DNA from: Candidatus Forterrea multitransposorum CG_2015-17_Forterrea_25_41
GTDB lineage: Archaea; Iainarchaeota; Iainarchaeia; Iainarchaeales; CSSED10-239
Length of the DNA stretch: 64,000 nucleotides
Assembly: GCA_009392915.1 (NCBI GenBank)
Contig: CP045477.1
Span: forward strand, 448,001-512,000
Direction: 5' to 3'
The notes under the pieces are model-generated. The model searched no databases, was not told the origin of the DNA, and saw only the letters and a list, made by a program, of their open reading frames with translations. A program made the translations under genes and the position numbers. This document shows positions 14,159 through 41,281 of this stretch, one piece after another (position 1 is the stretch's first letter; each line of letters opens with the position of its first letter).

Positions 14159-14164
14159 AAAAAA

Positions 14165-20174: not shown

Positions 20175-20777
20175 TTATTTTATCTTTTTTAAAAAATACC
20201 AAAAAGCAATAAATAACACTACAAAACCAACTAAAAAAATCATTAAAACATTAAAATAATTTAAAACTGATTTTGAAATCTCTTCTCCAAGCTTATAACC
20301 AAGAATTGTTAAAAAAGAAACCCATAAAAAAGATCCTAAAAAAGTGTAAAAAATAAAATCTTTTAAAGGCATTTTTGAAAAACCAGCAGGAATAGAAATA
20401 TACTGTCTTACAACAGGTATTAACCTTCCAAAAAAAGTTGCTGATTTACCATATTTTTTAAAAAACAATTCTGCTTTTTCTAGATGAGAAATATTTATAA
20501 AGAATATTCTTTGGTGTCTTAAAAGATATCTCCTTCCTAAATAATAACCTATAGAATAATTTATTAATGCACCAAAAACAGAACCTAAAGTTCCTAAAAG
20601 AATTACAAGAAATATATTTAAATTACCTACATATGCAAAAGCACCTGCAGGAACCATTATGATCTCTGAAGGAAAAGGAATAAATGAACTTTCAATAGTC
20701 ATTAATAAAAACACCAATAAATGTCCAACAAATCCTGTTAAATAATCAGACAAAAATAAAATCATTTCTTCAAACAT
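20175..20777 (-). CDS. DedA family membrane protein
   Basis: 200 aa. Typical DedA N-terminal region (ESSFIPFPSEIIMVPAGAFA), ..GRLIPVVRQYISIPAG.., and 4-5 TM helices. Confidence 0.8.
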   Translation of the reverse strand: MFEEMILFLSDYLTGFVGHLLVFLLMTIESSFIPFPSEIIMVPAGAFAYVGNLNIFLVILLGTLGSVFGALINYSIGYYLGRRYLLRHQRIFFINISHLEKAELFFKKYGKSATFFGRLIPVVRQYISIPAGFSKMPLKDFIFYTFLGSFLWVSFLTILGYKLGEEISKSVLNYFNVLMIFLVGFVVLFIAFWYFLKKIK

Positions 20778-20805
20778 AAGTTTTCGTCATTTCTTTTTAA
20801 GATAT

Positions 20806-21510
20806 CTAAACTATATAACTAGATACAAAAAAGATTAAAAGACTTACTGGAAGTAAAAAACATAAATAAATCCAAACTTTCTTTGAATTACTATCAATCT
20901 GTGATAAATAAATTGAAGAAATTATAACATATTCAACTAAATATACAATTGCACAATAATAACTTACAATAAACAAACTAGAATTAGAAGTTAAACCAAC
21001 AACTGAAATATCAACAATTCCAGTTAAACTTTTAACCAAAGAAATTACAACCCCTAAAATCCCAGGAACAATAAAACCACCTGCAAAAAGAATAGTGTAT
21101 TTTTGCATTAAAAGAATTGAAGTTCTTTCATCAAACAATTCTCTTGATTTTAAAAAATCTTTAACTAAATTTTTATAATCTTTAGAAGTAACTGTTCCAG
21201 TAAAAACTGAATATTCTAAAAGATCTAAAAAATTTGAAAGAAAAGAAGAATTATATTTATTTTTTAAAATATTAAACACTTCTTTAGGGGTATGCCCTTT
21301 GTTTATTTTATTTAAAATTAATTTAAATTCAGAAGATATTAATTGATTACTGGAAGATGCAAGCTTTACTAAAATTACTTTTAGATCATTTGTTTTAACA
21401 AACCCAGAGATTCTTAAAACTTCATCAATTAAAGCATCTTCAAATTTCTTTCTCTTAATACTAAAAAAATAATCTCCAAATAAGTAATTTAAATACTTCA
21501 TTAATTTCAT
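20806..21510 (-). CDS. Type IV filament platform protein, TadC/FlaJ-half-like (locus A)
   Basis: Cytoplasmic helical T2SS-F-like domain followed by 3 TM helices. Sits directly downstream of a TadB-like gene and a secretion ATPase. Confidence 0.55.
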   Translation of the reverse strand: MKLMKYLNYLFGDYFFSIKRKKFEDALIDEVLRISGFVKTNDLKVILVKLASSSNQLISSEFKLILNKINKGHTPKEVFNILKNKYNSSFLSNFLDLLEYSVFTGTVTSKDYKNLVKDFLKSRELFDERTSILLMQKYTILFAGGFIVPGILGVVISLVKSLTGIVDISVVGLTSNSSLFIVSYYCAIVYLVEYVIISSIYLSQIDSNSKKVWIYLCFLLPVSLLIFFVSSYIV

Positions 21511-21533
21511 AATTAATTAACTCTCATTTTTAT

Positions 21534-22280
21534 TTATGGAAGATTAGCTTTCATTGTTAGGAATATAAACATATCAATTATTGGAAATAAAATAACAATT
21601 ATAAAAATAACAGATAAAGGTGTAAAAGATAATTCTAAAAAATTACTACCAACTAATAAAAACATTAAAAACAAAGCAGGAACAATTGCAGAAACAACAA
21701 TATAGATTAAAGATAAAAGACTTAATTTAGTGGAATAATTTTTAATTAAATAATTTTGTTTTTCAATAATACTTGAAGATAATGTTCTTAAAGATTCAGA
21801 TTTATTTAAAGAACCAGTAGATAAAACATCTTCAATCTGATAAAAAACTCTCTTTAAATCTGAGTTTTCAACACCCACAGAAATAAAAGATTCAGAAAGA
21901 GAATAACCTAAGACATTTACTTTATATAAAACTTTTTTAATAATTTGCCCAATTAAAGAAGAATCAACTCTATTTTCTAAAGCAATTTTTAAAGAAATAT
22001 TCTTATCTAAATCATTTGCAAGGTTATTTAAGAAAAAAGGAATTTCTTTATTTATTTGTCTTTGATGATTTTGAAGCTTAATCTTGTATTTAAAAAAAAT
22101 AATAAAAAAGAACATAAAGAAAAACATAATAAATAAATTAAATAAATAACTATAAGATAAACTAATAACCACTGAATCAATTAATAAAAAAATAATTAAA
22201 ATTATTAAATAGAGAATAATAAATAACAAAAAGTTCTTTCTTGTAAATATTTCTTTCTTTAAAAAAATATAATCAATCAT
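21534..22280 (-). CDS. Type IV filament platform protein, TadB/FlaJ-half-like (locus A)
   Basis: N-terminal TMs, a T2SS-F-like helical domain (EIPFFLNNLANDLDKNISLKIALE...GYSLSESF), and C-terminal TMs. Its start overlaps the ATPase gene by 8 nt. Confidence 0.6.
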   Translation of the reverse strand: MIDYIFLKKEIFTRKNFLLFIILYLIILIIFLLIDSVVISLSYSYLFNLFIMFFFMFFFIIFFKYKIKLQNHQRQINKEIPFFLNNLANDLDKNISLKIALENRVDSSLIGQIIKKVLYKVNVLGYSLSESFISVGVENSDLKRVFYQIEDVLSTGSLNKSESLRTLSSSIIEKQNYLIKNYSTKLSLLSLIYIVVSAIVPALFLMFLLVGSNFLELSFTPLSVIFIIVILFPIIDMFIFLTMKANLP

Positions 22281-24036
22281 AATCTTTTCTAATTAATATT
22301 TCATCAATTATTTTTTCTTGTTTCTTATAAACTTTAAGATAATCTTTTTTATTTTTAATATCAAATGCAAATTTTAATTTATCATAGATTTTAATAGAAT
22401 CATTAACTTTAATTAATTTATTTTTATAAATATCAAAATAAAATAAAACATTTAAAGAAATTTTTCCATCTTTATATATAACTTCACAGATTTCAGTAAT
22501 ATTTCTTAAATCAATAGATTTACCTTTTAAATATTTATTATATCTTCTTTGAGTTATAATTAAATCAATTACACCTAAATCAGTTTCTAAAACACCATAT
22601 GACTTAAACCTTAATAGAGCTTCATTAGCACTTTGAGAATGGAAAGTTGTATATGTACCTTTTGCTTGACCACAAAGCATAGATTCAATTAAATATTTTG
22701 ATTCTTCTCTACTTCTAATTTCTCCAATAACAACTCTATCAGGTCTCATTCTTAAAGTGTTTATAACTAAACTTTCAAGATTAATTCCAATCTCAGGATT
22801 TACAAGTGTAAAAACTTTATGTTTATGAGGGATATTTATCTCTCTAACTTCTTCAACAACAACAAATCTTTCATCTAAAGGAACAAAAGAAAGTAAAGTG
22901 TTTAAAGTGGTTGTTTTTCCAGAACCAGTATTTCCAACAACAATTATATTTGAATCTGTTAAAAAACAAAGACTTAAAAAAACTAAAGCTTCTTTTGAAA
23001 CTGTATTAAAAGAGATTAAATCTTTAATTGTAAATGGTTTTTGAGAAAATTTTCTAATAGTAATACAAGCACTTTCAGTTATTGGGTTTATAACTGCATT
23101 AAGTCTTGAATTATCTTTAAGATAAGTATCTAAAATTGGATTTTTTAAAGTAATATATTTATTTGAGTGCCAAGAAAGTTTATTAATTAAATCCCTTATT
23201 ACTTGAGAAGAAGAATAAGAAAGATTACTTTCAAGCCAACCATAATATTTATGATAAACATAAAGTGATTTTCCTTCTCCAATAATTACAATTTCTTCAA
23301 GATAAGGATCTTTTAATATTTCTGTTAATGGTCCATAATTATAAAGATTATTAAAAGAAATATCTATAATATAATTAAATTGATCTTCTTCAAGCTCTAT
23401 GTTATTAACATAACAATAATCAATTAATTCTTTTTCAATATCTTCTTTTATTCTTTCAGTTGAAACTTTTTCAATATATTCTGTTCTAGTTTTATAAGAA
23501 TCTAAAATAAAGTTAATAACTTCAATTTCTTGGATTGAAAGATTTTGATGAAAAATTAAATATCTTTTAGAAGAATCTTTCATTTCAAATACATTTTTAG
23601 AAATATTTCTTAAGATTTCTTTTTTTAAATCTAAAACAACATAACCTAAATATCTATTAAGAATATATTTCTTTTCATCATCAGTAAACTCATCCATTAT
23701 CTTTAATAAAGCAGGATTATTTTTATAACAAAACATAGAAAAAGAACTTAAAGCACATAAATCACATTTATAAGCTTTATTTTTTCTTAAGATAATAGCA
23801 TTATGTGGACAAGCTTTAAGACACTCACCACACCCATCACATTTTTCAGAATCAATTGCTACAACGCCTTTAGAAACATAATAAATAGCATTTTTTTTAC
23901 AAGCTTTAATACAAGGAGCATCTTTACAATTGGTACAATTGAATACACAAGAAGAGTCTTTTTTTGTAAAATTGTAAGGACAATTTAGAAAAACATCTGT
24001 ATCTTTGATAAAATCTTCTGTTTTCTTAAGATACAT
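22273..24036 (-). CDS. FlaI/VirB11-type secretion ATPase with an N-terminal 2x[4Fe-4S] ferredoxin-like domain (locus A)
   Basis: Cys motifs CTNCKDAPCIKAC and CDGCGECLKACP (residues ~34-77). Intact Walker A VVGNTGSGKTTT (nt 22909-22938), Walker B-like RPDRVVIGEIRSREE, and His-box ..TTFHSQSA. Confidence 0.85.
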   Translation of the reverse strand: MYLKKTEDFIKDTDVFLNCPYNFTKKDSSCVFNCTNCKDAPCIKACKKNAIYYVSKGVVAIDSEKCDGCGECLKACPHNAIILRKNKAYKCDLCALSSFSMFCYKNNPALLKIMDEFTDDEKKYILNRYLGYVVLDLKKEILRNISKNVFEMKDSSKRYLIFHQNLSIQEIEVINFILDSYKTRTEYIEKVSTERIKEDIEKELIDYCYVNNIELEEDQFNYIIDISFNNLYNYGPLTEILKDPYLEEIVIIGEGKSLYVYHKYYGWLESNLSYSSSQVIRDLINKLSWHSNKYITLKNPILDTYLKDNSRLNAVINPITESACITIRKFSQKPFTIKDLISFNTVSKEALVFLSLCFLTDSNIIVVGNTGSGKTTTLNTLLSFVPLDERFVVVEEVREINIPHKHKVFTLVNPEIGINLESLVINTLRMRPDRVVIGEIRSREESKYLIESMLCGQAKGTYTTFHSQSANEALLRFKSYGVLETDLGVIDLIITQRRYNKYLKGKSIDLRNITEICEVIYKDGKISLNVLFYFDIYKNKLIKVNDSIKIYDKLKFAFDIKNKKDYLKVYKKQEKIIDEILIRKDYD

Positions 24037-30190: not shown

Positions 30191-30919
30191 TTACTTCTTC
30201 TTTTTATCATCTTTTTTAGCAGCAGGAGCAGCTTTACCAGCTGGAGCTTTTGAATCTTTACCAGCAACAACTTTACCTTTTGCAGCTTTAAGTTCTTGAG
30301 CTTTTGCTTCTTCTGCTTTCTTTTCTTCTTCTGCCATAGCAGCAAGTTTTCTTCTCTTCTTTGTAGTTCCAACAGATTTTAAGTTGTCTTTATTTTCTTC
30401 AATTACAACTTTCATTCTACAAGGAAGTTTAGAATCAAGTCTTTCAAAGACTTTTTTTACAAATTCAACATTTGCTTCATCAACTAAAACACTAAATAAT
30501 TTTTGATTAGATTTAACTCTTGCAGCAACACCAACAACTTTTCCAAAAGGGCATTGACTCATACCTTGTTGAATTCTGTCGGCTTTAGCACCTTGAGCTT
30601 GTTTATTTTCTCTTAAGAAAAATTGAGGATATACTCTTAATTTCATATAGAAATTTTGAGCAGTTAATTTTTTATTTAAGTTTCTTACAACAGTTGTTCT
30701 TACAGATTCTAAAGCTGAATCTCTAATTTGTATTTTTTCAGAAGTTACATAATGAACTACATGAGAATATTGTTTTTCTCCAAAACCCATATGGTATTGT
30801 CTAACTTTAATACCTGGAGTTCCGCCTACATAGTTCTTTCTATGCACTCTTTTTGCAACTCTTGTATATGCTCTTTTATTTACTTTTGGATTATAACAAT
30901 GTCCTGGTCTAACACCCAT
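30191..30919 (-). CDS. rpl10e: Ribosomal protein uL16 (L10e) with a 56-aa Ala/Lys-rich C-terminal extension
   Basis: N-terminus MGVRPGHCYNPKVNKRAYTRV...GGTPGIKVRQYHMG is typical of archaeal L10e, with a GGTGA SD upstream. The tail is KKRRKLAAMAEEEKKAEEAKAQELKAAKGKVVAGKDSKAPAGKAAPAAKKDDKKKK. Confidence 0.9.
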   Translation of the reverse strand: MGVRPGHCYNPKVNKRAYTRVAKRVHRKNYVGGTPGIKVRQYHMGFGEKQYSHVVHYVTSEKIQIRDSALESVRTTVVRNLNKKLTAQNFYMKLRVYPQFFLRENKQAQGAKADRIQQGMSQCPFGKVVGVAARVKSNQKLFSVLVDEANVEFVKKVFERLDSKLPCRMKVVIEENKDNLKSVGTTKKRRKLAAMAEEEKKAEEAKAQELKAAKGKVVAGKDSKAPAGKAAPAAKKDDKKKK

Positions 30920-31290: not shown

Positions 31291-33081
31291 TCATCCATAA
31301 GTAGTTGCTTTAATACTTTTAACTACACCACTTACAAGAACCCAGCCACCCCATTGACCAGTATTTCTGGATGAATTGGTTACAGATAAAGTCCAACCAG
31401 GTTCACTGTCACCAACTTCCCAATATTTACATTTTTTAGAAGAACCAAAAGCTTCTACTTTAATATTATAATTACCAGCAGGAACTTTCCAAGATCCATC
31501 TTTATCAGTTGCAAGTTGTGAACCACCATATTTAAGATATAAACCATCATTTCCATAATCATTAGTTATTGAACAAACATATGAAGCACTTGTTGAAGAA
31601 TAATTAAAAGTGAGACCTGCTTGAGAAGTATCATTTTCAGAAGCTAAACTAACTACTCCTTCTAAAACTAAATTACCTTGTGTACTTAAACCCTGGTAAA
31701 AGAAACCTGCAGAAGACCAAAATTCATTTAATTTAACACCACCACCTGAGAACGCAGGCTGAGCTACAACTGTACCACCTGATTGCGACCAACCAGACAA
31801 ACTAGTAATACTAGTTTGATTTAATAAAACTACAGCAGGAGCTGATAGAACAAGATTAATACTTGAACTTGTTGCTGTTCTTGAAGCACCATCTGTTACA
31901 GTTACTCTAATATATTTTGTACCAGTAGTTGAAAATGAATAAGTTGGATTTGAAACTGAAGTTCCAAAAACAATCCAAGTACTTTGATTTGTACTATATT
32001 CCCAGGAATAATTAGATACTCCAGAAACTGCATTACTTACAGAAGAATTAAAACTTATTGTTTGACCAGTATCATAATTTGTACCAGTTGTTGGAGAAGT
32101 AACACTTACAGCTAAAGGATCACTAATTAAAATATTACTAACAGTATCAGAATAAACTTGATTAATAGGAGAAGGTCTTGAAGCATCTGTAACTAAAACT
32201 CTAAACTCATAAGTCCCACCTGTTGCAAAACCATTTGTTGTAGTATAACTATTAGAACCAAAGTTAGTCCAACCAGTACTGTTTCTATTATACTGCCATT
32301 GATAAGATTTAGTACCAATTGCATTTGAAACACCTACATCAAATATTATTCCTTCACTAAGATTATAAACATCACTTGCATCAGGAGTATAAATAGTTGC
32401 TGTTAATGGAAGAACAACTGTAAAATCTTCACTTGAAGTTGAAATATCTCCAGTTCCAGAATCTGTTACTTTATAATAAATAGTATAGCTTCCTGTTGAA
32501 GATAAAGTTTGAGATAAAGAAGCACAATTAGTACCAACTGCAGTATTAGTATCATTTGAGTTTAATATCCATTCACAAGAAACTGTTGAAACATTATTAT
32601 CATAATTTCCAGTAAATGAAATTGTTTCATTATTATTCCAAGTAGTTCTTGACATTGTAATACTTGAAGATAACAAATCTAAAATATTTATTCCAATTGT
32701 TTGAGAATCACTTGAAGAATCAAAATCATCTAAAGTATCTAATTTAATTGAATAATCATTAAATACTGAAAAAGAATAACTTGTATTACAATCAGTACTA
32801 AAAGATGTAAATGATGGTAAGTCAGCTCTCTTATGACTCCAATTACAAGTTACATTTCCAACATTATTACTATATGAAGAATTAAAATTAATTGTTTTTG
32901 TAACATTATAATTTGATTCTTCTGTTGGATTTAATATTGTTGATGAAAAATCATCAAAAATTTCAACAAATAAATCATCACTAAAAGTTCCTTCATCATC
33001 ATTTGCAATTACTAAAATTTCATAAATTCCAGGAGTTGTAAAAGTATAAGAAATATCACACAAGGTATCTGAAGGATTCAT
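31291..33081 (-). CDS. PKD-like-repeat plus lectin/jelly-roll-like surface protein; likely the distal part of a pilin-adhesin gene interrupted by an in-frame TAA
   Basis: Repeats share the pattern [ST]VSCEW.../...Y.F...G.Y.I.V.V.D..G and are Ser/Thr/Asn/Gly-rich. There is no signal peptide, and the annotated Met lies inside a repeat. The frame stays open for 46 more codons upstream, to the stop of ORF 33220-33744. Confidence 0.7.
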   Translation of the reverse strand: MNPSDTLCDISYTFTTPGIYEILVIANDDEGTFSDDLFVEIFDDFSSTILNPTEESNYNVTKTINFNSSYSNNVGNVTCNWSHKRADLPSFTSFSTDCNTSYSFSVFNDYSIKLDTLDDFDSSSDSQTIGINILDLLSSSITMSRTTWNNNETISFTGNYDNNVSTVSCEWILNSNDTNTAVGTNCASLSQTLSSTGSYTIYYKVTDSGTGDISTSSEDFTVVLPLTATIYTPDASDVYNLSEGIIFDVGVSNAIGTKSYQWQYNRNSTGWTNFGSNSYTTTNGFATGGTYEFRVLVTDASRPSPINQVYSDTVSNILISDPLAVSVTSPTTGTNYDTGQTISFNSSVSNAVSGVSNYSWEYSTNQSTWIVFGTSVSNPTYSFSTTGTKYIRVTVTDGASRTATSSSINLVLSAPAVVLLNQTSITSLSGWSQSGGTVVAQPAFSGGGVKLNEFWSSAGFFYQGLSTQGNLVLEGVVSLASENDTSQAGLTFNYSSTSASYVCSITNDYGNDGLYLKYGGSQLATDKDGSWKVPAGNYNIKVEAFGSSKKCKYWEVGDSEPGWTLSVTNSSRNTGQWGGWVLVSGVVKSIKATTYG

Positions 33082-33219
33082 TCTTACTTGTGATCCACCT
33101 GCAATTGTATGATACCATTCACAAGAAACACTTCCTCTTTGATAAAGTGTATCAGTTTCAAAAGAAACAGAAGTGTTTACTCTGAATGAATCAAAATTTG
33201 TAACATTTGAAAAGAAAAT

Positions 33220-33744
33220 TTAAGAAGATGGAAGTTCTACAGCACATTTTCTTAAATCAATTGTTTTTTTAGGACAAGTAGAGTTTGATAAAGTAAAAAC
33301 CTTTAAATCTAAAGGATCAATTATTTCTCCAGAATCAACATTAATATCAGAATTTACAATTGTAAAATCAGTTGTTGATTTTAATTTTTTAATTTCTCCA
33401 GATAAAATAGGATTATCAAAATTACCATACATTTTTAGAACATTTGAAGAATTTTGAGAAGTTCCTTGAATATTTAAAGAAAGATTATAAAAATCAATAG
33501 GGGTTGGGTTTCTTAATAAAACTTCAATATTTCCAGTAGTTGAATCAAGATTACAAGATTCTACAACTAAATTATACTTAATACAATCCATTCTAGAAAC
33601 TTCTTGTAATTGATCTTGTGAAACATCTAATTTTTCTCTAACAGATGTTTTTGACCAAGATAAAAATCCTGCAACTAAAACAGCTGTTACCAAGATTAAT
33701 AAAACTACAGAAATTATTGCCGAAATTGATTTTTTTCTATTCAT
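33220..33744 (-). CDS. Archaeal type IV pilin-like protein (class III signal peptide)
   Basis: N-terminus MNRKKSISAIISVVLLILVTAVLVAGFLSW fits the archaeal pilin N-terminal domain: basic residues, a small residue at -1, then a hydrophobic helix. It ends at a TAA in frame with the next ORF. Confidence 0.7.
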   Translation of the reverse strand: MNRKKSISAIISVVLLILVTAVLVAGFLSWSKTSVREKLDVSQDQLQEVSRMDCIKYNLVVESCNLDSTTGNIEVLLRNPTPIDFYNLSLNIQGTSQNSSNVLKMYGNFDNPILSGEIKKLKSTTDFTIVNSDINVDSGEIIDPLDLKVFTLSNSTCPKKTIDLRKCAVELPSS

Positions 33745-33830
33745 AAATATCTTTTTTAAAATATAATATAATTATAGATATTATAGAAACTATTTTAAAG
33801 GTATCTTTATTCTTTTAAAAAAATAAATAT

Positions 33831-34172
33831 TTAAAAAGAAATAATATCATTTATTTTTATAAAAGAAATATCTGTTTCAATTGGAAGTTCAATTATATAT
33901 TTAGCTTTCTTTTTTGGAGAATAAAAAGTAAAAGGTCTTAATCTTTTTTTAATATCAATAACTTTTTTATTTGAATCTAGAAAAAGAACATTTATTGAAT
34001 AGAAAACAAAAAGCATATGAATTGAAGAGCCTACAATAGATTCATATTCTCTTTTAAAAATAAGACCAAAATCAAATTTCTTTCTTGGAAAAAACATAAG
34101 TCCAAGTCCTTGTTTTAAAGGAGAAATTATTTTCTTTTTTTTAATTATTATTTTATTATTAACTTTTATCAA
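33831..34172 (-). CDS. DUF192 (COG1430) family protein
   Basis: GLGLMF...IHMLFVFYSINVLFLDSNKKVIDIKK...AKYIIELP follows the DUF192 GLM/...M...LD..F.d/...vLE pattern. Confidence 0.65.
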   Translation of the reverse strand: MIKVNNKIIIKKKKIISPLKQGLGLMFFPRKKFDFGLIFKREYESIVGSSIHMLFVFYSINVLFLDSNKKVIDIKKRLRPFTFYSPKKKAKYIIELPIETDISFIKINDIISF

Positions 34173-34178
34173 AAATAA

Positions 34179-35330
34179 TCACACTTTTTTTTTTAAACTT
34201 ACCCTATATAAAATAACAAAATCAATATCAGATTTTCTAATCTCAAAATCAAAAAATACAGCATCTGGTACAAAAATAGCATACTCTGCACAAGAAAGAC
34301 CACATTCACTTTGATCAAAAGGTAAAAAATATAGATTATTACTATATGTTTTATCTAGAATATATTTAGAACTAATAGATTTTAAAGCAATGACTTCAGA
34401 AATATTTACTTGTTCTAGCTGATTACGATTCATATAGGTAATAGTGTCAATTAAAACACTCTCAGCATCTGGTTTTGGAACAGCAATTTGAAAGATTAAA
34501 ATTGTAAATATAAAAAATATGAAAATATATTTGATAAAATTAAAACTACTTTCTTCTTTTATTGCAAACATTATAAAAGAAATAAAGATAGAAAGAACAA
34601 TTGCCATATAAAGAAGGAAATTATCAAAAAATATTCTTGTTATTAAATCTTGATCTGCATACCATAAAAAATTATTACCTAGTATAATATTTATGAATAA
34701 AATTACAACTAAAAAGATTACAAATAAAACAATGGATAAATAATATAAATTTAAAAAATATTTTTTCTTTTGTGTTTCTTCTTTAAAAATAGAAATATCT
34801 TTTGAAATATTTAAAAGAACTCTATCAAGAGGTATAGAACTTTCTTTAAAAGTCTTTAACAATATTAAAGTGTGAGTGATTATTGGACTTTTAATAGTCT
34901 CATTAATACCTGATAAAGCATTTTCAAAATCATCTCCCCAAGAAACTCTATTTGCTATTCTTTTTATTTCTGTATCAATTGAACCATAAACATTTGATGT
35001 TGTGATATTGTTTAATGATATTGATAAATTATTTGTAGATTTATACTCTCTCGATAAATCTTGTAAAAAGAATGTAAAAGAAGTTTCAATTGCTTTCTTT
35101 TTAAAGTGTTTTAAAACATATTCTAAAACAAAACCTAAAAAACTTACGAAAAAACCAAAAAAGAAAACTGCATAGTATAATTCAGTATGAAGAAAATATT
35201 TATTTGATAAATGAACAATTAAAAGACCAGATAAAATACTTGCAAGAATTAATATTTGGTATTCATAATTATAAATTAATAGTTTTAATTTAATATTCAT
35301 TTTATCTAAAAATTTATTTTTTTCTATCAT
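34179..35330 (-). CDS. Type IV filament platform protein, TadC/FlaJ-half-like with an extra C-terminal domain (locus B)
   Basis: N-terminal TMs, a T2SS-F-like helical domain (..IKRIANRVSWGDDFENALSGINETIKSP..), 3 TMs, then a ~90-aa extracytoplasmic tail. Confidence 0.6.
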   Translation of the reverse strand: MIEKNKFLDKMNIKLKLLIYNYEYQILILASILSGLLIVHLSNKYFLHTELYYAVFFFGFFVSFLGFVLEYVLKHFKKKAIETSFTFFLQDLSREYKSTNNLSISLNNITTSNVYGSIDTEIKRIANRVSWGDDFENALSGINETIKSPIITHTLILLKTFKESSIPLDRVLLNISKDISIFKEETQKKKYFLNLYYLSIVLFVIFLVVILFINIILGNNFLWYADQDLITRIFFDNFLLYMAIVLSIFISFIMFAIKEESSFNFIKYIFIFFIFTILIFQIAVPKPDAESVLIDTITYMNRNQLEQVNISEVIALKSISSKYILDKTYSNNLYFLPFDQSECGLSCAEYAIFVPDAVFFDFEIRKSDIDFVILYRVSLKKKV

Positions 35331-35346
35331 TTAAAAATCAATCTCT

Positions 35347-36189
35347 TCATTTATATAAAATCCCAATTAATACAAATTCAATTACTGCAAATATTATTGA
35401 AAAAATCAACAATGATTCTTTTAATAAAAAATAATCTGTAAAAGTTATAAAAAATATTATTAAAATAACAATAAAAAAGAAAAATAAAAATATTGACATT
35501 AAAAATAAAATATTAATTCTACTTTTCTTTTGTTCACTTAACTCTCTTTTAGATTGTTCTAAATTAGTTAAGAAATCAAGAATAACTTGATTTAAGTCTT
35601 CTTTTTGATCAATAACTTCAATTAATTTTCTAAAGAAGTTTTTTTCAACTTCAGAATATGTTTCAGAAATTATTGATTTAAAAGTATCTTTAAGATTATG
35701 ATTTCTTTTATTTAAAGCAATTATTTTCTTTGCTTCTCTGCTTAATATATCATTATTTTCTAAGTTTTCAAAAACATTCAATACATCTTTAATAGTTAGA
35801 TTTTCATCTCTTAAAACAGATAAATGTTTTATAGATCTTTGAAATTCACTACCAATTTCTTTTTTTATATTATTTAAAATAAAAAAAGGATATTTAAATA
35901 AAAGTAAAAAAATCATAAAAGCAAAAGTAAAAGAAATAAAAATAGTTATAAAAAAACTAAAAAGATTAAACAATATTCCAAGTCTAATCATTAAATAAAT
36001 AAAAGCAAACTCTATAACTATTAAAAAAAATATAGAAATAAAAGAAATATTTGAAATATAACTAATAGAATCTTCATTGATACCAGTATATTCTAAAACT
36101 CTATCAAAATTTTTAAAAGTACCTTTAAATTGCATAACAATATCTTTTAAGAAAAATAAAGATATACTTGTTAAGAATTTACTAAACAT
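35347..36189 (-). CDS. Type IV filament platform protein, TadB/FlaJ-half-like (locus B)
   Basis: TMs flank a helical cytoplasmic domain (..IKHLSVLRDENLTIKDVLNVFENL..). The gap to the upstream ATPase-like gene is 7 nt. Confidence 0.6.
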   Translation of the reverse strand: MFSKFLTSISLFFLKDIVMQFKGTFKNFDRVLEYTGINEDSISYISNISFISIFFLIVIEFAFIYLMIRLGILFNLFSFFITIFISFTFAFMIFLLLFKYPFFILNNIKKEIGSEFQRSIKHLSVLRDENLTIKDVLNVFENLENNDILSREAKKIIALNKRNHNLKDTFKSIISETYSEVEKNFFRKLIEVIDQKEDLNQVILDFLTNLEQSKRELSEQKKSRINILFLMSIFLFFFFIVILIIFFITFTDYFLLKESLLIFSIIFAVIEFVLIGILYK

Positions 36190-36196
36190 ATTTTTT

Positions 36197-39100
36197 TCAC
36201 TTTATATCGAGTCTTTTAAACAACTCGTCCTTTTCATAATTATATTGAGAGATAATACTATTAAAATCTTTGTAATTGTATACTTTTGAATCCTTCATCC
36301 ATCTCATAAGTTTCTTTTTCTTTAAAAAATCAACAACATTTATTGAAGAAGATAAAAGATTAATATTGTATTTATTTTCGGATATTTCTAAATCTACAAC
36401 TACACTTTCATTTTTATTAATTATTTCTTTAATATTTACAATTTGATAAGTTTCTTTAAAACCTTGTTTAATTCTTTTAATTTCTATTAGAATAGATTTT
36501 TGATTAACCATTTTTAATTGTTCAATAAATTTATCAGCAACATTTGGTTTTATTGAAAAGATATTTAAGTTATACCAAGAAACATCAAAAATATCTTCTC
36601 CAAACTCATCAATTGCAATAATATCTGGTTTCTGAGAAATTGTTTGTTCAATAATTAAACGTTTACTTAAATCTGCATTATTTGTAAAAATTCTATTAAT
36701 CCATTCTTTTTGAGGAAGTTTAAATCTATCGTATGCCTGAACAGTTATAATTTTCTGATCAGGATAAAATAAAAGTATAGAATTATAAATTACAAAAGAA
36801 TCATCAACATCATGTAAAATAACTTTATAGTTTTCTGAAATTGCAGACCAGATATATGAAAATACATCTACAGAACCAATAGATGTATTAACTAAAGCAA
36901 CAGGTGTTAATGGTTCATCAAGATATTTTTTAATTACAAAAGAAGAACCTTTACTACTAGTATCTCCTAAAGAATAAAGACCTTCAACTTTATAACCATT
37001 AGGTAAATATCCATCAATCACAGGATGTTCTGGAGTTATATAGATACCCATATTTTTAGTTAAAATAGTTACAAAGTTATTTAACTCAATAATATCTTTA
37101 AAACTAATATTTGTTTTTAAAACACCATACTCTACATGGTAAACTATAAGATTTGATTTTTCACCAGAACAACTAACTTCAATTATTTTTTTATCAAGTA
37201 AAAGATTAGTTAAAATACCTAACCCAAAAAATTCTCTTTGAATAAATTTAAGATAAAGTTTTTGTTGTAATTTACCTAAACTATAAGATAATTTTTCAAC
37301 AGAAATATCAAATATTTTTTGAATATATTTATCAAGACTATGTTTATCTCCATTAAAAGAATAATAGTTTTTATCGATTGTATTAAAAAATACTTTTTTT
37401 AATTGAATATATTCTTTTTCTTGTTCACTATTAAGTTCTGGTTGTACTAAATTATAGAAAAGACCTTTAGTATTATCATAATGTATTGTAACATATGTAA
37501 AATCATCTATAGAATATTTATCAAAAATATTTTTTATATTTTCTTCAAATGAAGCAATAGGATCTTGATACACTAAAGAAGAAAATAGAGAATTGTCAGA
37601 AGATAATTTTTCTTGATATATTTCTTTATTTATTTTAACAGGATTTTTTCCAGCATCTTTTGGAAGGATATAATCCATACCTTTTTCTCTTAAGTCTTTA
37701 AATTTTTCTGCAATTAAATCATTTTTAACTTTCGGAGTTAATTTTACTTCTTTGATAATTTTAATTTCTTGTTCTTTTGGTAATGATTCTTTTTTAATTG
37801 TTTTAGATATTTTTTCATCATCATTATCTTCATCAGAATAATTCTCTTTTGAAGTAACTTTTTCTTCTCTTATAGAAGGAGAAATATATTTTTTATTTTT
37901 GTTTGAAATTTTAGATTTATCTTTTTTATTTTTAGGAGAAGAAATTTCTCTCATACCTTTATATATTCTTTCATCATCTTCTTTAGATAAATCAACATCA
38001 GAAAATACTTTTTTAACATCTTCTTCATCTTTATCTATTTTCTCATTTAAAACATTAACATCAAATTTTTCTTTTTCTTTTTCTTCTAAAGTTTTTGATT
38101 TTTTTAATTTAGAAATATTATTTTCAATTTCAGAATTTAATTTTACTTGATTATTATCAATTACAAAATTTGGTGTTTTTTCAGAAGATTCATTTGTTTT
38201 AATTTCAGAAGATAAAGAAGAATCTTCATTTAAAACTTTTAAATCATTTTTTGAATCTTTATCATATACAGAAAACTTATCTTCAACAGTGTTAGATAAA
38301 TCTTTAACATCATCTTCAATTGCAAAAATATCTGGAACTTCAATTTCTTCAAATAAACCATTAGCCTCACCTAAAGAAGAATTATTTAAATGAGAACTAG
38401 AATTTTTAGAATCTATTTCTAAATTACCTGTGTTTTTAGGAAAATCATTTGAATTTGCTAAAGTTTCTTTATTTTGAGAATCTTTATTTTTATTTACAGA
38501 TAAATGATCTATTTTTGAATATAAATTTTTAACATCATACTTTGGAAAATCAATTTTACTTTTTTTAGGTTTATCATCTAAAAAAGAAAATGATTCTAAA
38601 TAAACTTCTTGATCAAGTTTACTTGCTTTTTTATTTAATTGATCTAATAAATCATCTACATTTTCATTTTTTGATTTTACTTCTGAAAAAATATCATTTG
38701 ATTCTTTACTTTCAGAATATTCTTTTGGTTTAGATACATTTTCTAAAATATCTTTCAAAAGAGACATGGTTTTTTTATTATTATTTGATTCATCAAAATT
38801 TATTTCTTTTTTAATTGAATTATCAATATGATCTATTTTAGGCTCACTTATTAAAAATGAATTTGAAGGTTTTATTTTTTTTTCAGAAGATGAATCCGAA
38901 AGTAGTAGTTCATGAGATGAATCAGGGAGTAATAATTCATTATTAATTTTTGATGAAATTAATTTATTAGATGTTGATTTTTTATCAACTTTATCTAAAG
39001 GAACTTCTTTTTTAAAAATATTAGAATTATCAACCTTATCTAAAGGAACTTCTTTTTTAGAAATATTAGAATTATCAACTTTATCTAAAGGAACTTCTTT

Positions 39101-39547
39101 TTTAGAAATATTAGAATTATCAACTTTATCTAAAGGAACTTCTTTTTTAGAAATATTAGAATTATCAACTTTATCTAAAGGAACTTCTTTTTTAGAAATA
39201 TCTAAATTATCAACTTTATCTAAAAGAATCTTTTTTTTTCTAAAAGGATTAAAATCTTTATATTTTTCTTCAATATCAGAAGTGTCAACTTTTAAGTTTA
39301 CTTTCTTAACATCATTATAATTTTTATTTAAAGAAAAATCATCTTTTTTAGTTTCTGGTAAAACTACATCAAATTTTTGTAATTTTTTAGAATTACTATT
39401 ATTTTTTAAAGAACTATCAATTTTATCTTCTTTTAAAGAACTATCAAATTTATTATTTTTTACAGAATCTGAAGCTTTAGATATAGATTTAGATAGAGGA
39501 ATTCTTTTAATAACCTTAAAACCAGAAAAATTATCCTCTCCACCCAT
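36197..39547 (-). CDS. FlaI/ArlI-like secretion-ATPase homologue without a Walker A P-loop, fused to a ~700-aa low-complexity repeat-bearing N-terminus
   Basis: The C-terminal ~400 aa align collinearly with the locus A ATPase and the FlaI pattern (GLGILTNLLLDKKIIEVSCSG...VYHVEYGVLKTNISF...SSFVIKKYLDEPLTPV...). GxxGSGKT is replaced by ILHDVDDSFVI (nt 36788-36814). A Walker-B-like PDIIAIDEFGED is retained. Confidence 0.8.
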   Translation of the reverse strand: MGGEDNFSGFKVIKRIPLSKSISKASDSVKNNKFDSSLKEDKIDSSLKNNSNSKKLQKFDVVLPETKKDDFSLNKNYNDVKKVNLKVDTSDIEEKYKDFNPFRKKKILLDKVDNLDISKKEVPLDKVDNSNISKKEVPLDKVDNSNISKKEVPLDKVDNSNISKKEVPLDKVDNSNIFKKEVPLDKVDKKSTSNKLISSKINNELLLPDSSHELLLSDSSSEKKIKPSNSFLISEPKIDHIDNSIKKEINFDESNNNKKTMSLLKDILENVSKPKEYSESKESNDIFSEVKSKNENVDDLLDQLNKKASKLDQEVYLESFSFLDDKPKKSKIDFPKYDVKNLYSKIDHLSVNKNKDSQNKETLANSNDFPKNTGNLEIDSKNSSSHLNNSSLGEANGLFEEIEVPDIFAIEDDVKDLSNTVEDKFSVYDKDSKNDLKVLNEDSSLSSEIKTNESSEKTPNFVIDNNQVKLNSEIENNISKLKKSKTLEEKEKEKFDVNVLNEKIDKDEEDVKKVFSDVDLSKEDDERIYKGMREISSPKNKKDKSKISNKNKKYISPSIREEKVTSKENYSDEDNDDEKISKTIKKESLPKEQEIKIIKEVKLTPKVKNDLIAEKFKDLREKGMDYILPKDAGKNPVKINKEIYQEKLSSDNSLFSSLVYQDPIASFEENIKNIFDKYSIDDFTYVTIHYDNTKGLFYNLVQPELNSEQEKEYIQLKKVFFNTIDKNYYSFNGDKHSLDKYIQKIFDISVEKLSYSLGKLQQKLYLKFIQREFFGLGILTNLLLDKKIIEVSCSGEKSNLIVYHVEYGVLKTNISFKDIIELNNFVTILTKNMGIYITPEHPVIDGYLPNGYKVEGLYSLGDTSSKGSSFVIKKYLDEPLTPVALVNTSIGSVDVFSYIWSAISENYKVILHDVDDSFVIYNSILLFYPDQKIITVQAYDRFKLPQKEWINRIFTNNADLSKRLIIEQTISQKPDIIAIDEFGEDIFDVSWYNLNIFSIKPNVADKFIEQLKMVNQKSILIEIKRIKQGFKETYQIVNIKEIINKNESVVVDLEISENKYNINLLSSSINVVDFLKKKKLMRWMKDSKVYNYKDFNSIISQYNYEKDELFKRLDIK
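38986..39228 (-). repeat. Near-perfect 45-bp tandem repeat (~5.4 copies) inside the ATPase-like gene
   Basis: Unit caactttatctaaaggaacttcttttttagaaatattagaattat starts at 38986, 39031, 39076, 39121 and 39166, with a partial copy at 39211. It encodes (DNSNISKKEVPLDKV)n in frame. Confidence 0.92.
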
Positions 39548-39630
39548 AAATATGCCTTCTTTAAAATATATTTTAATATATAGATATTAGTTCATTAGAT
39601 TTATAAATCTTTAGATATTTTTTAATAGCT

Positions 39631-40362
39631 TCAAATAACAAAAGAAATAATTTTTGGAATAATTTCAAAAACATATAAAAGAATTAGAAAGATATAACTT
39701 ACTAGGATTAATATAATAAATGGAATTAAAGGAGAAAACCACACCTTAGAAATATTATGATTTTTAGCAATAACTTTAATTTTTTTAATTTCATTTTCTG
39801 GTTCAATATTTGGCATAAAAACAATTTTTGAAATTAATTTATTATTTTCTACATACAATTTTTCTAAAGGAGTATAAAAATTATTTACTTTTTTTAAAGA
39901 TAAAGGAACCCCTAAAAACATTAGATATAATGATTTAAAAAAATTATATTTAGGAAAATTTCTTGAAAATAAATTATATAAAAATAAGAAAACAGGTATA
40001 AGTAAAGTTAAAACTAAAGCAAAAAAGAAAATAAACATTGGAAAATATATATCAAAAATATTTGTAAATGATATTGCAAAAATAGTATAAAGATCCCCTT
40101 CTCCTATATATGTAAAATAACTAATCTTTCCTAAAACATAAAAAATTAATAAAAATATAAAACTTACAGCAAGTTGTATTAAATAACCTTTCCATAAAAT
40201 AAAATCTGTTTTAAAAACAAAAATACCTAAATAAAGAATACTAAAGATGGCTAAGAAAAATAAAGACATTATATTTATTTCTCTATACTTAATATCTTGA
40301 TAAGTTACATACAATAAAATAATTATAGAAAAAATAATTATTGGTAAATAAATATAATCCAT
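39631..40362 (-). CDS. Archaeal prepilin/preflagellin peptidase (A24 family, FlaK/PibD/EppA-like)
   Basis: Polytopic membrane protein with two catalytic-Asp contexts at canonical spacing: YQDIKYREI (Asp23) and YIGEGDLY (GxGD, Asp~89). Confidence 0.8.
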   Translation of the reverse strand: MDYIYLPIIIFSIIILLYVTYQDIKYREINIMSLFFLAIFSILYLGIFVFKTDFILWKGYLIQLAVSFIFLLIFYVLGKISYFTYIGEGDLYTIFAISFTNIFDIYFPMFIFFFALVLTLLIPVFLFLYNLFSRNFPKYNFFKSLYLMFLGVPLSLKKVNNFYTPLEKLYVENNKLISKIVFMPNIEPENEIKKIKVIAKNHNISKVWFSPLIPFIILILVSYIFLILLYVFEIIPKIISFVI

Positions 40363-40369
40363 AAGTTAT

Positions 40370-41281
40370 CTATATTGATCTTTTTGTAAGATACATTAAA
40401 TCTTTATAAGCTTTAACTTTTGTTTTTCTTGCAGTTGATCTTTCAAAAAGATTATCAGTATAATTTCCAGGAGGTCCTACTGATTTAATTTTTTTATTTT
40501 TAATTTTATTTAAAAGAATCTTATTCTTTAAATTATCATCATCTTTATCAAAAAAAGAAGTATTTAGATCAATTGTTAAAATACCACTACCAATCTCAGA
40601 AACATTATAACTTCCAGAACCAGCTGTAATATAGTTTGACATTTTACCAAGCTTAATTGCTGCTTCAAATTTATAAACAACATCATAACTTTTTTGATCA
40701 ATTTTATGAGTTAAATATTCACTAAAACTTGAAAGTCCTAAAGTCTTAAAAAACCTATGAAGCTCTAAATAATCTAAAATATGTCTTAATTTTCTTAAGA
40801 AAAAAGAATCATGCATATAATAAGATAAATACCCAATTGTTCCAGTATATGCTTCAACACCAATTTTTTTTTCTTTAATAATTTTTTCTAATTTATCAAG
40901 TCCTAAAATATAAGTTGCAGAATTTGATATAAGTCCAAAAGGATGTGCAATTGTTATTAAATATCTTTTTTTATAACAAAAATCAATTAATCTTTTAAGA
41001 GAAACTTTATCTTCATAAAGTATAGAATAATTATAAATACTAGCATCTTCAGAAAAAACTAAAACTTCTCCAGAATCAGTTAATATTTTAATACCTGGAA
41101 TTAATAATTTATCTTTTGGTTTAAATTTTAAAAGTTCAAAATATGCTTTTCTAGGATCTAAATAATTATATTCAGTTATAGCTGTACCTAAAAGATTATT
41201 TTCAGAAACTACTTTCCAATATTTTTTTGCAGACTCTTTATTTTTAAAAAGATGAGTATGCATGTCAATATTATATAACAT
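40370..41281 (-). CDS. PHP-domain metal-dependent phosphoesterase
   Basis: N-terminal IDMHTHLF motif and later His-containing motifs (IAHPFG). Confidence 0.6.
   Translation of the reverse strand: MLYNIDMHTHLFKNKESAKKYWKVVSENNLLGTAITEYNYLDPRKAYFELLKFKPKDKLLIPGIKILTDSGEVLVFSEDASIYNYSILYEDKVSLKRLIDFCYKKRYLITIAHPFGLISNSATYILGLDKLEKIIKEKKIGVEAYTGTIGYLSYYMHDSFFLRKLRHILDYLELHRFFKTLGLSSFSEYLTHKIDQKSYDVVYKFEAAIKLGKMSNYITAGSGSYNVSEIGSGILTIDLNTSFFDKDDDNLKNKILLNKIKNKKIKSVGPPGNYTDNLFERSTARKTKVKAYKDLMYLTKRSI

Follow-up and report, generated by a model that had tools for sequence, protein, structure and literature searches.

What can a type IV filament operon do if its ATPase homologue has lost the motifs that bind nucleotide? 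The window, by which we mean the whole 64,000-nucleotide stretch of DNA that we analyzed, raises this question at positions 31291-40362, where there are seven minus-strand ORFs with successive gaps of 83, 7, 16, 6 and 86 nt. A first-pass annotation of the sequence had described a run of seven ORFs separated by 6-86 nt, and the run is real. It had also assigned the run to a type IV filament locus of a DPANN archaeon; this too was upheld, and a 98%-identical relative is Candidatus ainarchaeum, of the phylum Iainarchaeota. The ORFs and most of the protein families proposed for them stood. Three other claims did not: that the locus encodes the only ATPase homologue, that the pilin is joined to the adhesin, and that the adhesin ends in a lectin-like domain. 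The interpretation built on these observations was supported in part.

A FlaI/GspE homologue without a Walker A motif

We found that the second gene of the run (36197-39547, minus strand) encodes a 1116-aa homologue of FlaI and GspE with a long N-terminal extension, here called the pseudo-ATPase. A Pfam search with this protein gave no match, T2SSE included. NCBIfam FlaI matched aa 668-955 at 1.9e-30, and the PDB sequences matched were afGspE (2OAP, 9.5e-31) and FlaI (4IHQ, 3e-21). The FlaI/GspE-like part, aa 650-1116 (36200-37600, minus strand), comprises an N-terminal domain and a RecA-like domain. An AF2 model of this part had a pLDDT of 87.3 and a pTM of 0.86, and in a Foldseek search of the PDB it resembled 2OAP (TM 0.78) and 4IHQ/4II7 (TM up to 0.72). 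That is, both the profile search and the predicted fold bear out the FlaI/GspE assignment.

The segment equivalent to Walker A, VILHDVDDSFVIYNS (aa 909-923; 36779-36823, minus strand), has a deleted P-loop and no GK[ST]. When aligned to afGspE and FlaI, the pseudo-ATPase has HDVDDSFV at the position where active homologues have GGTA[ST]GKT, confirming that a FlaI-like protein here lacks Walker A. The equivalents of the Asp box, ITVQAYDRFKL (aa 934-944), and of Walker B, PDIIAIDEFGED (aa 974-985), lie at 36593-36748 on the minus strand. The pseudo-ATPase has no Asp-box Glu in the alignment, its family does not conserve the Walker B Glu, and the His-box segment that follows the Walker B equivalent is deleted. 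From these motifs we infer that the pseudo-ATPase probably does not bind ATP.

The pseudo-ATPase shares its two-domain fold over the full length (TM up to 0.78) with FlaI (ArlI), afGspE and the Pfam T2SSE family (PF00437). The sequence similarity runs through the N-terminal domain, to an E value of 1e-30, and the gene is directly upstream of platform genes. Unlike FlaI and afGspE, it has no P-loop, 2-3 residues being deleted there, in addition to the losses above, and it bears an N-terminal extension. In a 2026 survey of archaeal type IV filament (TFF) ATPases, functional motifs were present throughout (10.64898/2026.04.22.720090).

Conservation of the motif-less protein

Loss of every nucleotide-binding motif would fit a decaying locus, in which the ATPase gene is turning into a pseudogene and the operon is unused. 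A nonsense codon within the pilin-adhesin gene (below) could be another symptom, and a relative, locus L005 (relatives' loci are numbered L001 onward), has a frameshift at the same place. The distribution of the protein argues against decay. The motif-less protein was found with the same gene order in 16 Iainarchaeota species genomes and one more distant lineage. That order, which runs peptidase, pseudo-ATPase, two platform halves and DUF192, holds for the 16 species genomes and for L001-L003. The core order is kept even around a family member with 26% identity. The motif-less state and the gene order together extend over at least 17 divergent lineages. The family comprises 16-18 clusters scoring 589-782 bits, none of which has a Walker A motif. 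It is discrete; the next score in a search of 1.84 billion representative proteins was 258 bits. In a scan for Walker A, none of the 25 top family members had the motif, and Gx[TS]AxGKT was present in nearly all of ~130 more distant homologues.

The pseudo-ATPase is under strong purifying selection. The dN/dS of its FlaI-like part was 0.044 compared to L004 (dS 0.18) and 0.14 compared to L005; the value of 0.044 is on par with that of the first platform half (0.05). Across the peptidase, the pseudo-ATPase core, the platform halves and the DUF192 gene, dN/dS was 0.04-0.19. In addition, the 1116-codon ORF is intact in DNA of 20-23% GC, and the 642 codons after the TAA in the pilin-adhesin gene have stayed open, with 21 synonymous and 29 non-synonymous changes in the window lineage. 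An intact ATPase at this position in relatives, with the present copy evolving neutrally, would have pointed to decay; every relative with the same gene order was motif-less, and the comparison favors the annotation's view of a functional variant. The low dN/dS and the shared motif-less state and gene order largely refute decay, which we consider very improbable.

The N-terminal extension

The extension, aa 1-649 (37601-39547, minus strand), is rich in K, S, D, N and E, and is probably disordered, judging from this composition. A 45-nt tandem repeat identified by TRF (38982-39239, minus strand; 5.7 copies, 96% match) encodes KKEVPLDKVDNSNIS and is missing, in the alignment, from the near-identical protein P0014 (1080 aa). 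Of the huge disordered repeat region described in the first-pass annotation, the repeat was thus confirmed, and the composition is consistent with the disorder. Among relatives the extension varies from 330 to 665 aa. It has four conserved short motifs (aa 295-309, 314-352, 398-413 and 623-634), present in 19-20 family members, and its dN/dS compared to L004 was 0.37.

Short motifs conserved within a long, variable extension are typical of interaction hubs, and the pseudo-ATPase might be a regulator that competes with or caps an active ATPase on the platform. It would then act as a brake or switch on filament assembly and retraction, with the extension receiving the signal. Retention of the fold and the N-terminal domain after loss of the catalytic motifs fits such a role, as does an active paralogue encoded nearby (below). 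However, the gene is in the canonical ATPase position and directly precedes its own platform genes, at gaps of 7 and 16 nt, which suggests a stoichiometric part of the machine, and Pfam and NCBIfam searches detected no sensor or signaling domain in the protein. We think it quite unlikely that regulation is its role.

Peptidase, platform and DUF192 proteins

The first gene (39631-40362, minus strand) encodes a 243-aa class III signal (prepilin) peptidase of family A24 and of the FlaK/PibD type (Pfam Arc_PepC_II 5.8e-10 and Peptidase_A24 2.2e-4; NCBIfam FlaK 1.3e-7). Both catalytic Asp residues that had been noted, D23 (YQDIKYREIN) and that of the GEGD89 motif, are conserved in 19 of 19 aligned orthologues. 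The two half-size platform proteins were also correctly recognized, each having a single T2SSF domain. The first (280 aa; 35347-36189, minus strand; Pfam 2.1e-9) resembles TadB or the N-terminal half of FlaJ and matches NCBIfam ArlJ/FlaJ at 5.2e-9 over profile positions 20-242 of 555. The second (383 aa; 34179-35330, minus strand; Pfam 2e-8) is TadC-like, and its orthologues have the identical position in every relative whose locus extends far enough. The DUF192 assignment of the 113-aa product of 33831-34172 (minus strand) held as well (PF02643, 2.9e-9, 37.4 bits against a cutoff of 27; NCBIfam PRK03760, 1.2e-21). This protein has no obvious signal peptide, and in other lineages DUF192 also adjoins type IV filament modules with an intact ATPase. 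Upstream of the peptidase gene, after a 7-nt gap, is a gene for a 303-aa PHP/CehA-like metallohydrolase (40370-41281, minus strand; NCBIfam CehA_McbA 0.0011) with a dN/dS of 0.04. It is upstream in 14 loci, and in L001 another gene intervenes before the peptidase; it is uncertain whether it is part of the operon.

Loci of the archaeal TFF system 1 (Epd-like) and of subsystem 4A likewise have a two-gene platform, a dedicated class III peptidase, and adhesin-like class-III-signal proteins beside the machinery; their split platform and occurrence in DPANN have been described (Makarova 2016, PMC4858521; Sivabalasarma & Albers 2026 preprint). The label Epd was nevertheless not supported. The peptidase here is of the short FlaK/PibD type with Arc_PepC_II and not the 9-TM EppA, which is tied to the Epd clade (Makarova 2016, PMC4858521). 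The operon also differs in its predicted non-catalytic occupant of the ATPase seat and its DUF192 gene, and no small pilins of the Epd type were seen. The bacterial Tad/Flp pilus (TadA/CpaF, TadB, TadC, TadV) is similar in its separate TadB and TadC halves, its dedicated A24 peptidase and its adhesive role, and DUF192 is found beside Tad genes in Bulleidia extructa (PMC12786226). Unlike Tad/Flp, the ATPase seat here appears to be dead, no TadZ was seen, and there is no secretin because the host is an archaeon. In addition, the pseudo-ATPase matches CpaF (E 4e-5) far more weakly than FlaI or GspE.

Interruptions between pilin and adhesin

The 174-aa pilin module (33223-33744, minus strand) has a class III signal pattern, KKS followed by ISAIISVVLLILV, and is the sole class-III-signal-like ORF of the window. 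A module of ~170 aa is common to 13 paralogues and orthologues, with conserved Cys54 and Cys157-Pro158. AF2 gave an N-terminal helix and beta strands with a pLDDT of 52, which does not confirm a pilin fold; the signal pattern and the conserved module stand, and identify the protein as a putative pilin. The adhesin module (31291-33219, minus strand; 642 open codons) has the five PKD-like repeats that had been reported (PKD_4, 1.6e-9 to 1.9e-9) and a ~180-aa C-terminal domain, for which searches gave no support as lectin-like. Its first Met is 46 codons in, it has no signal peptide of its own, and a weak PF00801 match (aa 12-86) starts immediately after the stop.

In this genome the pilin frame does not run on into the repeats, as had been claimed. 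An in-frame TAA (33220-33222, minus strand) lies at the boundary, where the residues are ...ELPSS-X-IFFSNVTNFDSFR; the codon is CAA (Gln) in L004, L032 and L033, and the same TAA allele is found in an independent metagenome contig, L031. Pilin and adhesin form one uninterrupted ORF in L004, L032, L033 and L034. Other fusions, including pilin-LamG and pilin-Ig, occur in L001, L009, L010 and L018, and in about half of the relatives the locus lacks a pilin gene. The Sulfolobus bindosome and the class-III-signal binding proteins that "functionalise" TFF machines are similar in that a large extracellular binding domain follows a class III signal and a pilin-like N-terminus, and is presented by a TFF-type machine. 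They differ in that the N-terminal part here is a conserved ~170-aa module with a probable disulfide, and the cargo consists of PKD, LamG or Ig repeats and not solute-binding proteins.

Interruptions at the module boundary are independent in at least four lineages, with no decay downstream: a TAA in the window and L031, a TAA in L027 and L035, a TAA in L010, and a TGA (+1 shift) in L005. Because the closest relatives and L034 do not share the stop and are uninterrupted, fusion is the ancestral state, from which the stops arose recently. The C-to-T change here (CAA to TAA) in an ancestrally single ORF would leave the bare 174-aa pilin as the main product.

It is possible, but doubtful, that the stop and the L005 frameshift are programmed leaky signals that yield mostly bare pilin and some read-through product. 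Read-through would probably insert Gln and determine what share of the subunits carry the adhesin, as in the Q-beta A1 protein and the luteovirid (luteovirus) coat read-through domain, where the stop of a structural gene is likewise followed in the same frame by a large surface extension. All four interruptions are at the boundary, and the three PKD-type ones are at most ~5 codons apart within an ORF of ~817 codons. Downstream, 638-1078 codons remain open, compared to an estimated ~9% stops among random codons at this composition. The parts downstream lack both a start codon and a signal peptide, the first PKD domain abuts the stop, and no other comparable same-frame ORF pair was found in the window or in 28 loci. 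CAA, the sense codon of relatives, encodes Gln, the amino acid that near-cognate tRNAs usually insert at UAA. Unlike the viral stops, which serve only as an analogy, this one is not shared by relatives and has no known stimulatory signal. It is not in a known leaky context, no RNA structure follows it (z-scores -0.7 to +1.8), and no suppressor tRNA was found within the window. Moreover, TAA is the main genuine stop (26 of 46 window ORFs), and recurrent selected truncations that turn the adhesin off, of which only those at the boundary leave a working pilin, would account for this pattern too.

A second module as a possible source of energy

The pseudo-ATPase had been taken to be the only ATPase homologue, which is wrong. 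An ORF at 22273-24036 (minus strand) encodes an intact 587-aa secretion ATPase (Pfam T2SSE 2.3e-35; Walker A GNTGSGKT) with an N-terminal 2x[4Fe-4S] ferredoxin domain that matched Fer4 families in Pfam. With its two platform halves of 248 and 234 aa (20806-22280, minus strand; Pfam T2SSF 0.003 and 5.4e-7) it makes up a module at 20.8-24.0 kb, ~10 kb from the pseudo-ATPase operon. The ATPase-platform-platform order is conserved in L011, L020 and L022, and both ATPases are on one contig in JAQVTI010000004.1 and CAZQEL010000011.1. No peptidase or class-III-signal gene was found beside this module in the window, L020 or L022. The intact module has an ATPase and a platform and neither peptidase nor pilin, and therefore the two modules would be complementary. 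We infer a putative functional link between the two ATPases. Members of the intact-ATPase family occur widely among DPANN lineages without a pseudo-ATPase, so the partner is not required.

In the explanation that we favor, the pseudo-ATPase, which keeps the whole FlaI/GspE fold and occupies the ATPase seat, would not hydrolyze ATP and would be a structural subunit docked to its own platform pair. The extension, with its four short motifs, may tether partners, and the ferredoxin-fused ATPase of the neighboring module would power extraction and assembly of the pilin in trans. A platform pair in each module equally fits two independent machines. Among the loci examined the modules are adjacent only in L011, where the intact-ATPase orthologue is directly downstream of DUF192, and many relatives have no pilin gene, as noted above.

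Alternatively, the operon could be a display platform that works independently of ATP. Adhesin-bearing pilins would stay anchored to the membrane or to a short stub that the platform and pseudo-ATPase hold in place, somewhat as in a bindosome; the peptidase would cleave the class III signal, no motor would be needed, and the ferredoxin-fused ATPase module would be a separate machine. The operon is complete but for a working motor, each module has a separate platform pair, and in most relatives the pilins of the locus all bear a large adhesin domain that would fit awkwardly into a long homopolymeric filament. Class-III-signal binding proteins have been proposed to "functionalise" TFF machines (preprint 10.64898/2026.04.22.720090). 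Against this, the entire two-domain ATPase fold is strongly conserved, which suggests that ATPase-type contacts persist, and the two modules occur in synteny and in one case side by side. To our knowledge, all characterized TFF systems, including the bindosome (Bas), require an ATPase. We regard display without ATP as unlikely.

The combination of parts had been thought undescribed. Split platforms and adhesin-fused class-III-signal proteins are on record for archaeal systems (PMC4858521; preprint 10.64898/2026.04.22.720090), but the conserved pseudo-ATPase and the recurrent stops at the module boundary appear to be undescribed. We hold with moderate confidence to energy supplied in trans: the operon, conserved in this lineage, would be a functional TFF module for presenting adhesins at the cell surface, with a structural role for the pseudo-ATPase.

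A type IV filament operon with a P-loop-less ATPase homologue

We found that a seven-ORF type IV filament (TFF) operon in this DPANN archaeon (phylum Iainarchaeota) has, in its motor seat, a FlaI/GspE homologue without nucleotide-binding motifs, hereafter the pseudo-ATPase. A first-pass annotation of this region was largely right, and its central point survives: the ATPase homologue has no P-loop and is not decaying. The ORFs lie at 31291-40362 on the minus strand, with spacings of 83, 7, 16, 6 and 86 nt; the window has a GC content of ~23%.

The first ORF (39631-40362, minus strand) encodes a FlaK/PibD-type class III signal peptidase of family A24 (Pfam Arc_PepC_II, 5.8e-10, above cutoff). 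The two catalytic Asp contexts ascribed to it, D23 and GEGD89, are kept in an alignment of 19 orthologues. The product is 243 aa, with ~6 hydrophobic segments on direct reading of the sequence. After the pseudo-ATPase (36197-39547, minus strand) come the two proposed half-size platform proteins (35347-36189 and 34179-35330, minus strand), each with a single T2SSF domain above the Pfam cutoff (37.8 and 34.6 bits). The DUF192 protein (PF02643; 33831-34172, minus strand) was likewise recovered, at 37.4 bits vs a cutoff of 27, and had no match in the PDB by sequence.

A 174-aa pilin-like protein (33223-33744, minus strand) follows. Its N-terminus resembles a class III signal (KKS followed by ISAIISVVLLILV), and it is the sole ORF of this kind within the window. 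No small stand-alone pilins were seen there. The pilin module had no family match in Pfam or NCBIfam. It is conserved among 13 sequences, and an AlphaFold (AF2) model from a four-sequence alignment reached a pLDDT of only 52. A homologue search returned 3 proteins only; the metagenome scan for this module used the 4-sequence alignment.

The last ORF (31291-33219, minus strand) encodes five PKD-like repeats and then a domain of ~180 aa. The annotation had described PKD-like repeats and a lectin-like domain, and the first part of this description holds. One repeat matched PKD_4 (1.6e-9; 38.1 bits vs a cutoff of 27), the remaining repeats were weak, and all five have a recurring C/Y-x-W motif on direct reading. 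The lectin (LamG) label found no support: the C-terminal domain had no sequence match in Pfam, NCBIfam or the PDB, and it did not resemble the LamG_3 domain that a paralogue in the related locus L001 carries.

The usual neighbours of the locus are a PHP-like gene at one end and the gene for ribosomal protein L10e at the other. In the window, the PHP/CehA-like metallohydrolase gene (40370-41281, minus strand) is 7 nt upstream of the peptidase gene. It keeps this position in most relatives and evolves at a very low rate (dN/dS 0.04). L001 has a further gene in between, and membership of the operon is uncertain. The L10e protein (30191-30919, minus strand) has a Lys/Ala/Glu-rich C-terminal tail of ~55 aa.

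The pseudo-ATPase retains the fold and lacks the motifs

The pseudo-ATPase is 1116 aa and had no Pfam match at E values up to 0.1. The NCBIfam FlaI model matched it at 1.9e-30, with a score of 106 bits vs a cutoff of 550, that is, below the curated cutoff. In a PDB sequence search, the last 467 residues matched the secretion ATPase afGspE (2OAP; E 9.5e-31) and FlaI (4IHQ/4II7; about 1e-21). The AF2 model of this FlaI-like part (pLDDT 87.3, pTM 0.86) has the two-domain T2SSE/FlaI/GspE fold, an N-terminal domain and a RecA-like C-terminal domain. Using Foldseek, the model superposed on 2OAP, 4II7 and 4IHQ over both domains (E about 1e-30, TM 0.6-0.78).

We aligned the pseudo-ATPase with active homologues. 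In place of the P-loop GGTA[ST]GKTT it has HDVDDS-FV, in which 2-3 residues are deleted, and the Walker A motif G-x-x-G-x-GK[ST] is missing from every member of the family. The Asp box IEDTxE has become VQAYDRF and its Glu is gone. Walker B (VGEVRG) is replaced by IDEFGE, LDNFTx or VDNFVE among family members; thus, its Glu is not conserved. A deletion has removed the His-box segment.

The first 649 residues form an extension rich in K, S, D, N and E, which is about 330-665 aa long among relatives. Four short motifs in it (aa 295-309, 314-352, 398-413 and 623-634) are kept in 19-20 family members. The extension also contains a 45-nt tandem repeat (38982-39239, minus strand; 5.7 copies, 96% identity). 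This repeat is missing from P0014, an otherwise 99%-identical pseudo-ATPase of 1080 aa, indicating strain-level variation in length.

The pseudo-ATPase family is conserved

We searched 1.84 billion representative proteins with a profile and obtained 16-18 clusters at 589-782 bits, followed by a fall to 258 bits, where ordinary ATPases start. None of the members of the top group has a Walker A motif, and nearly all of the ~130 weaker matches have one. One ordinary archaeal secretion ATPase homologue, P0056, has an insertion of ~470 aa, apparently an intein, immediately following the lysine of Walker A (GGTATGK-C...HN-TT).

The related genome loci are all (16/16) from Iainarchaeota/Diapherotrites or other archaeal metagenome-assembled genomes. 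The annotation had asked whether the gene order recurs, and it does: every related locus of sufficient length reads peptidase, pseudo-ATPase, platform half, platform half, DUF192. One member, at only 26% identity, has kept the N-terminal motifs, in a locus that reads peptidase, pseudo-ATPase, T2SSF, T2SSF. In one relative (L002, 13268-14752), the public gene call joins the second platform half and DUF192 as one protein of 494 aa despite a separating TGA; we assume that this TadC-DUF192 fusion is a gene-calling artefact.

We calculated dN/dS relative to the closest relative (L004), at a dS of 0.18, which is unsaturated. Values were 0.044 for the FlaI-like part of the pseudo-ATPase, 0.052 for platform half 1 and 0.042 for the PHP-like gene. 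The N-terminal extension had a dN/dS of 0.37. The annotation had raised the possibility of a decaying locus, with an intact ATPase in relatives and a copy here that evolves neutrally. The relatives carry the same motif-less protein, and decay was rejected because of the low dN/dS and the conservation across lineages. The closest intact ATPases are only 22-25% identical to the pseudo-ATPase, and downstream of one of them lie two T2SSF genes and a DUF192 gene. Based on this, the most likely origin of the pseudo-ATPase operon is an ordinary operon of the ATPase/T2SSF/T2SSF/DUF192 type.

An intact ATPase in a second module

The annotation took the pseudo-ATPase for the only ATPase homologue, and for the window this is wrong. 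An intact ATPase of 587 aa is encoded at 22273-24036 (minus strand; Pfam T2SSE, 2.3e-35), with the Walker A sequence GNTGSGKT and an N-terminal two-cluster 4Fe-4S ferredoxin domain. It belongs to a second TFF-like module (20175-24036, minus strand) that also encodes a pair of T2SSF proteins, each with a single domain, and, at its end, a VTT/DedA membrane protein. Some 2 kb past the gene for the latter lies one for a 300-aa protein (17248-18150, minus strand) that has a signal-like stretch at its N-terminus, a transmembrane helix and, at its C-terminus, a winged-helix domain (MarR/TrmB-like); it is possibly a membrane-anchored transcription factor.

The two modules are repeatedly linked. In the related locus L011, the ferredoxin-ATPase module is directly downstream of DUF192. 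In two further genomes it is on one contig with the pseudo-ATPase operon, and in other relatives it is in the same syntenic place. There is no peptidase or class-III-signal gene beside the ferredoxin-ATPase module. The pseudo-ATPase operon has both and lacks a cognate motor with working Walker A and B motifs; the intact one is found only in the separate module. Because the modules are complementary in this way, with the motor in one and the peptidase and pilin in the other, we prefer a model in which the intact ferredoxin-fused ATPase would supply energy in trans to the pseudo-ATPase operon. However, each module carries its own pair of platform genes, and the ferredoxin-ATPase family occurs widely in DPANN (thousands of matches), including lineages without the pseudo-ATPase; both points count against this model. 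The fusion itself suggests that a secretion ATPase is under redox-linked control.

The pilin-adhesin junction is recurrently interrupted

The annotation had the pilin joined to an adhesin. In this genome it is not: the pilin and PKD ORFs share a frame and are separated by a single TAA (33220-33222), with the residues ELPSS-X-IFFSNVTNFDSFR around the stop. The first PKD repeat starts right after the TAA. The adhesin part lacks its own signal peptide, and its first Met comes 46 codons after the stop. We found no comparable pair of same-frame ORFs elsewhere in the window or in 28 loci.

We compared the junction in related loci. Three close relatives (L004, L032 and L033; 94-98% identical) have CAA (Gln) at the boundary and a single ORF, 811-933 aa long in the complete cases (L004 ends at the contig end), and the boundary is also uninterrupted in L034 (77% identical). 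The TAA is present in the window and in an independent metagenome contig, L031. A second species, represented by L027 and L028 from two samples, has a TAA three codons away (L027, 2752-2754). L005 has a TGA and a one-base shift at the same spot (about 15139), and L010, which has a different adhesin, has a TAA at the linker (15097-15099) followed by 1078 open codons. That is, four independent lineages are interrupted exactly at pilin/adhesin boundaries, and 638-1078 codons stay open after each interruption, with no further stops in any interrupted gene. L005 also has an extra stand-alone pilin paralogue of 175 aa (13936-14463), with a double stop at its end, just upstream of the interrupted pilin-PKD gene.

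In more distant relatives, the pilin is fused without interruption to LamG, Ig or other domains, in proteins that reach 1216 aa. A pilin module of ~170 aa is common to all fusions, with conserved Cys54 and Cys157-Pro158. From the junction states across relatives we infer that the fused gene is ancestral and that the window allele is a derived C-to-T nonsense change. Of the codon changes specific to the window lineage in the adhesin part, 21 are synonymous and 29 non-synonymous; constraint is thus not visibly relaxed.

An assembly error is an unlikely source of the TAA, as the same allele is in contig L031 and the L027 allele was found in a second sample (L028/L035). Global reassignment of TAA was rejected, because TAA is the stop of 26 of the 46 long ORFs, with ordinary adjacent genes beginning right after it. 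More likely, the interruptions are recurrent selected truncations at the sole position that leaves a working pilin, giving adhesin-off variants. It is also possible, if doubtful, that the stops are leaky and give both a short and a long product. In keeping with leakiness, the in-frame stop here is followed by a long frame that is kept coding and has no start of its own, but the stop is not conserved, since the closest relatives read CAA. Nor did we find a known stimulatory context, a suppressor tRNA within the window, or RNA structure 3' of the stop above that of shuffled controls.

A broader reading would join the two modules of Iainarchaeota in one adhesive machine. The dead paralogue would be an obligatory partner or stator of a redox-sensing ferredoxin-ATPase, and leaky boundary stops and frameshifts would dose adhesin-bearing subunits into a filament of bare pilin. 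We regard this reading as a long shot.

Comparison to known systems and implications

To our knowledge, all described type IV filament machines run on a PilB/FlaI-type ATPase. Surveys of archaeal TFF systems from 2016 (PMC4858521) and 2026 (10.64898/2026.04.22.720090) do not mention a motif-less ATPase, and in the 2026 survey the TFF ATPases keep functional motifs. Our literature search did not turn up a motif-less FlaI/GspE/PilB paralogue in any TFF locus, and searches on DUF192 in archaeal pili and on pilin read-through returned nothing specific.

The combination of features had been thought undescribed, and this is only partly so, as two of the four unusual features were already known. Two-gene platforms and fusions of a class III signal to adhesin or binding domains occur in archaeal TFF systems, including those of DPANN (PMC4858521; 10.64898/2026.04.22.720090). 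The operon had also been labelled Epd-like. As in Epd ('system 1' of Methanococcus), the platform is encoded by two genes. In contrast, Epd has a 9-TM EppA peptidase (PMC4858521) and the peptidase here is of the FlaK/PibD type, so the label does not fit. There is one earlier record of DUF192 next to Tad genes, from a bacterium (PMC12786226). We found that it also adjoins TFF modules with active ATPases in several unrelated archaeal lineages (L025, 5848-6150; L030, 9629-9979), and it therefore looks like a general, uncharacterised accessory of TFF systems.

What is new is a small conserved family of pseudo-ATPases in the motor seat of an Iainarchaeota TFF operon, whose mechanism we infer, along with its motif-bearing N-terminal extension, the linkage of its operon to a ferredoxin-fused ATPase module, and the recurrent interruptions at the pilin/adhesin boundary. 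A motif-less paralogue under strong selection in the motor seat would be a clear pseudoenzyme of this superfamily. It raises the question of a role for the ATPase scaffold beyond ATP hydrolysis, with platform gating, partner recruitment and mixed rings with an active paralogue as candidates. The repeated, precise interruptions between pilin and adhesin point to one of two things: on/off variation of the adhesin, or recoding during translation of an archaeal surface protein. The operon is an obvious candidate for the attachment apparatus of the Iainarchaeota, a barely studied DPANN phylum.
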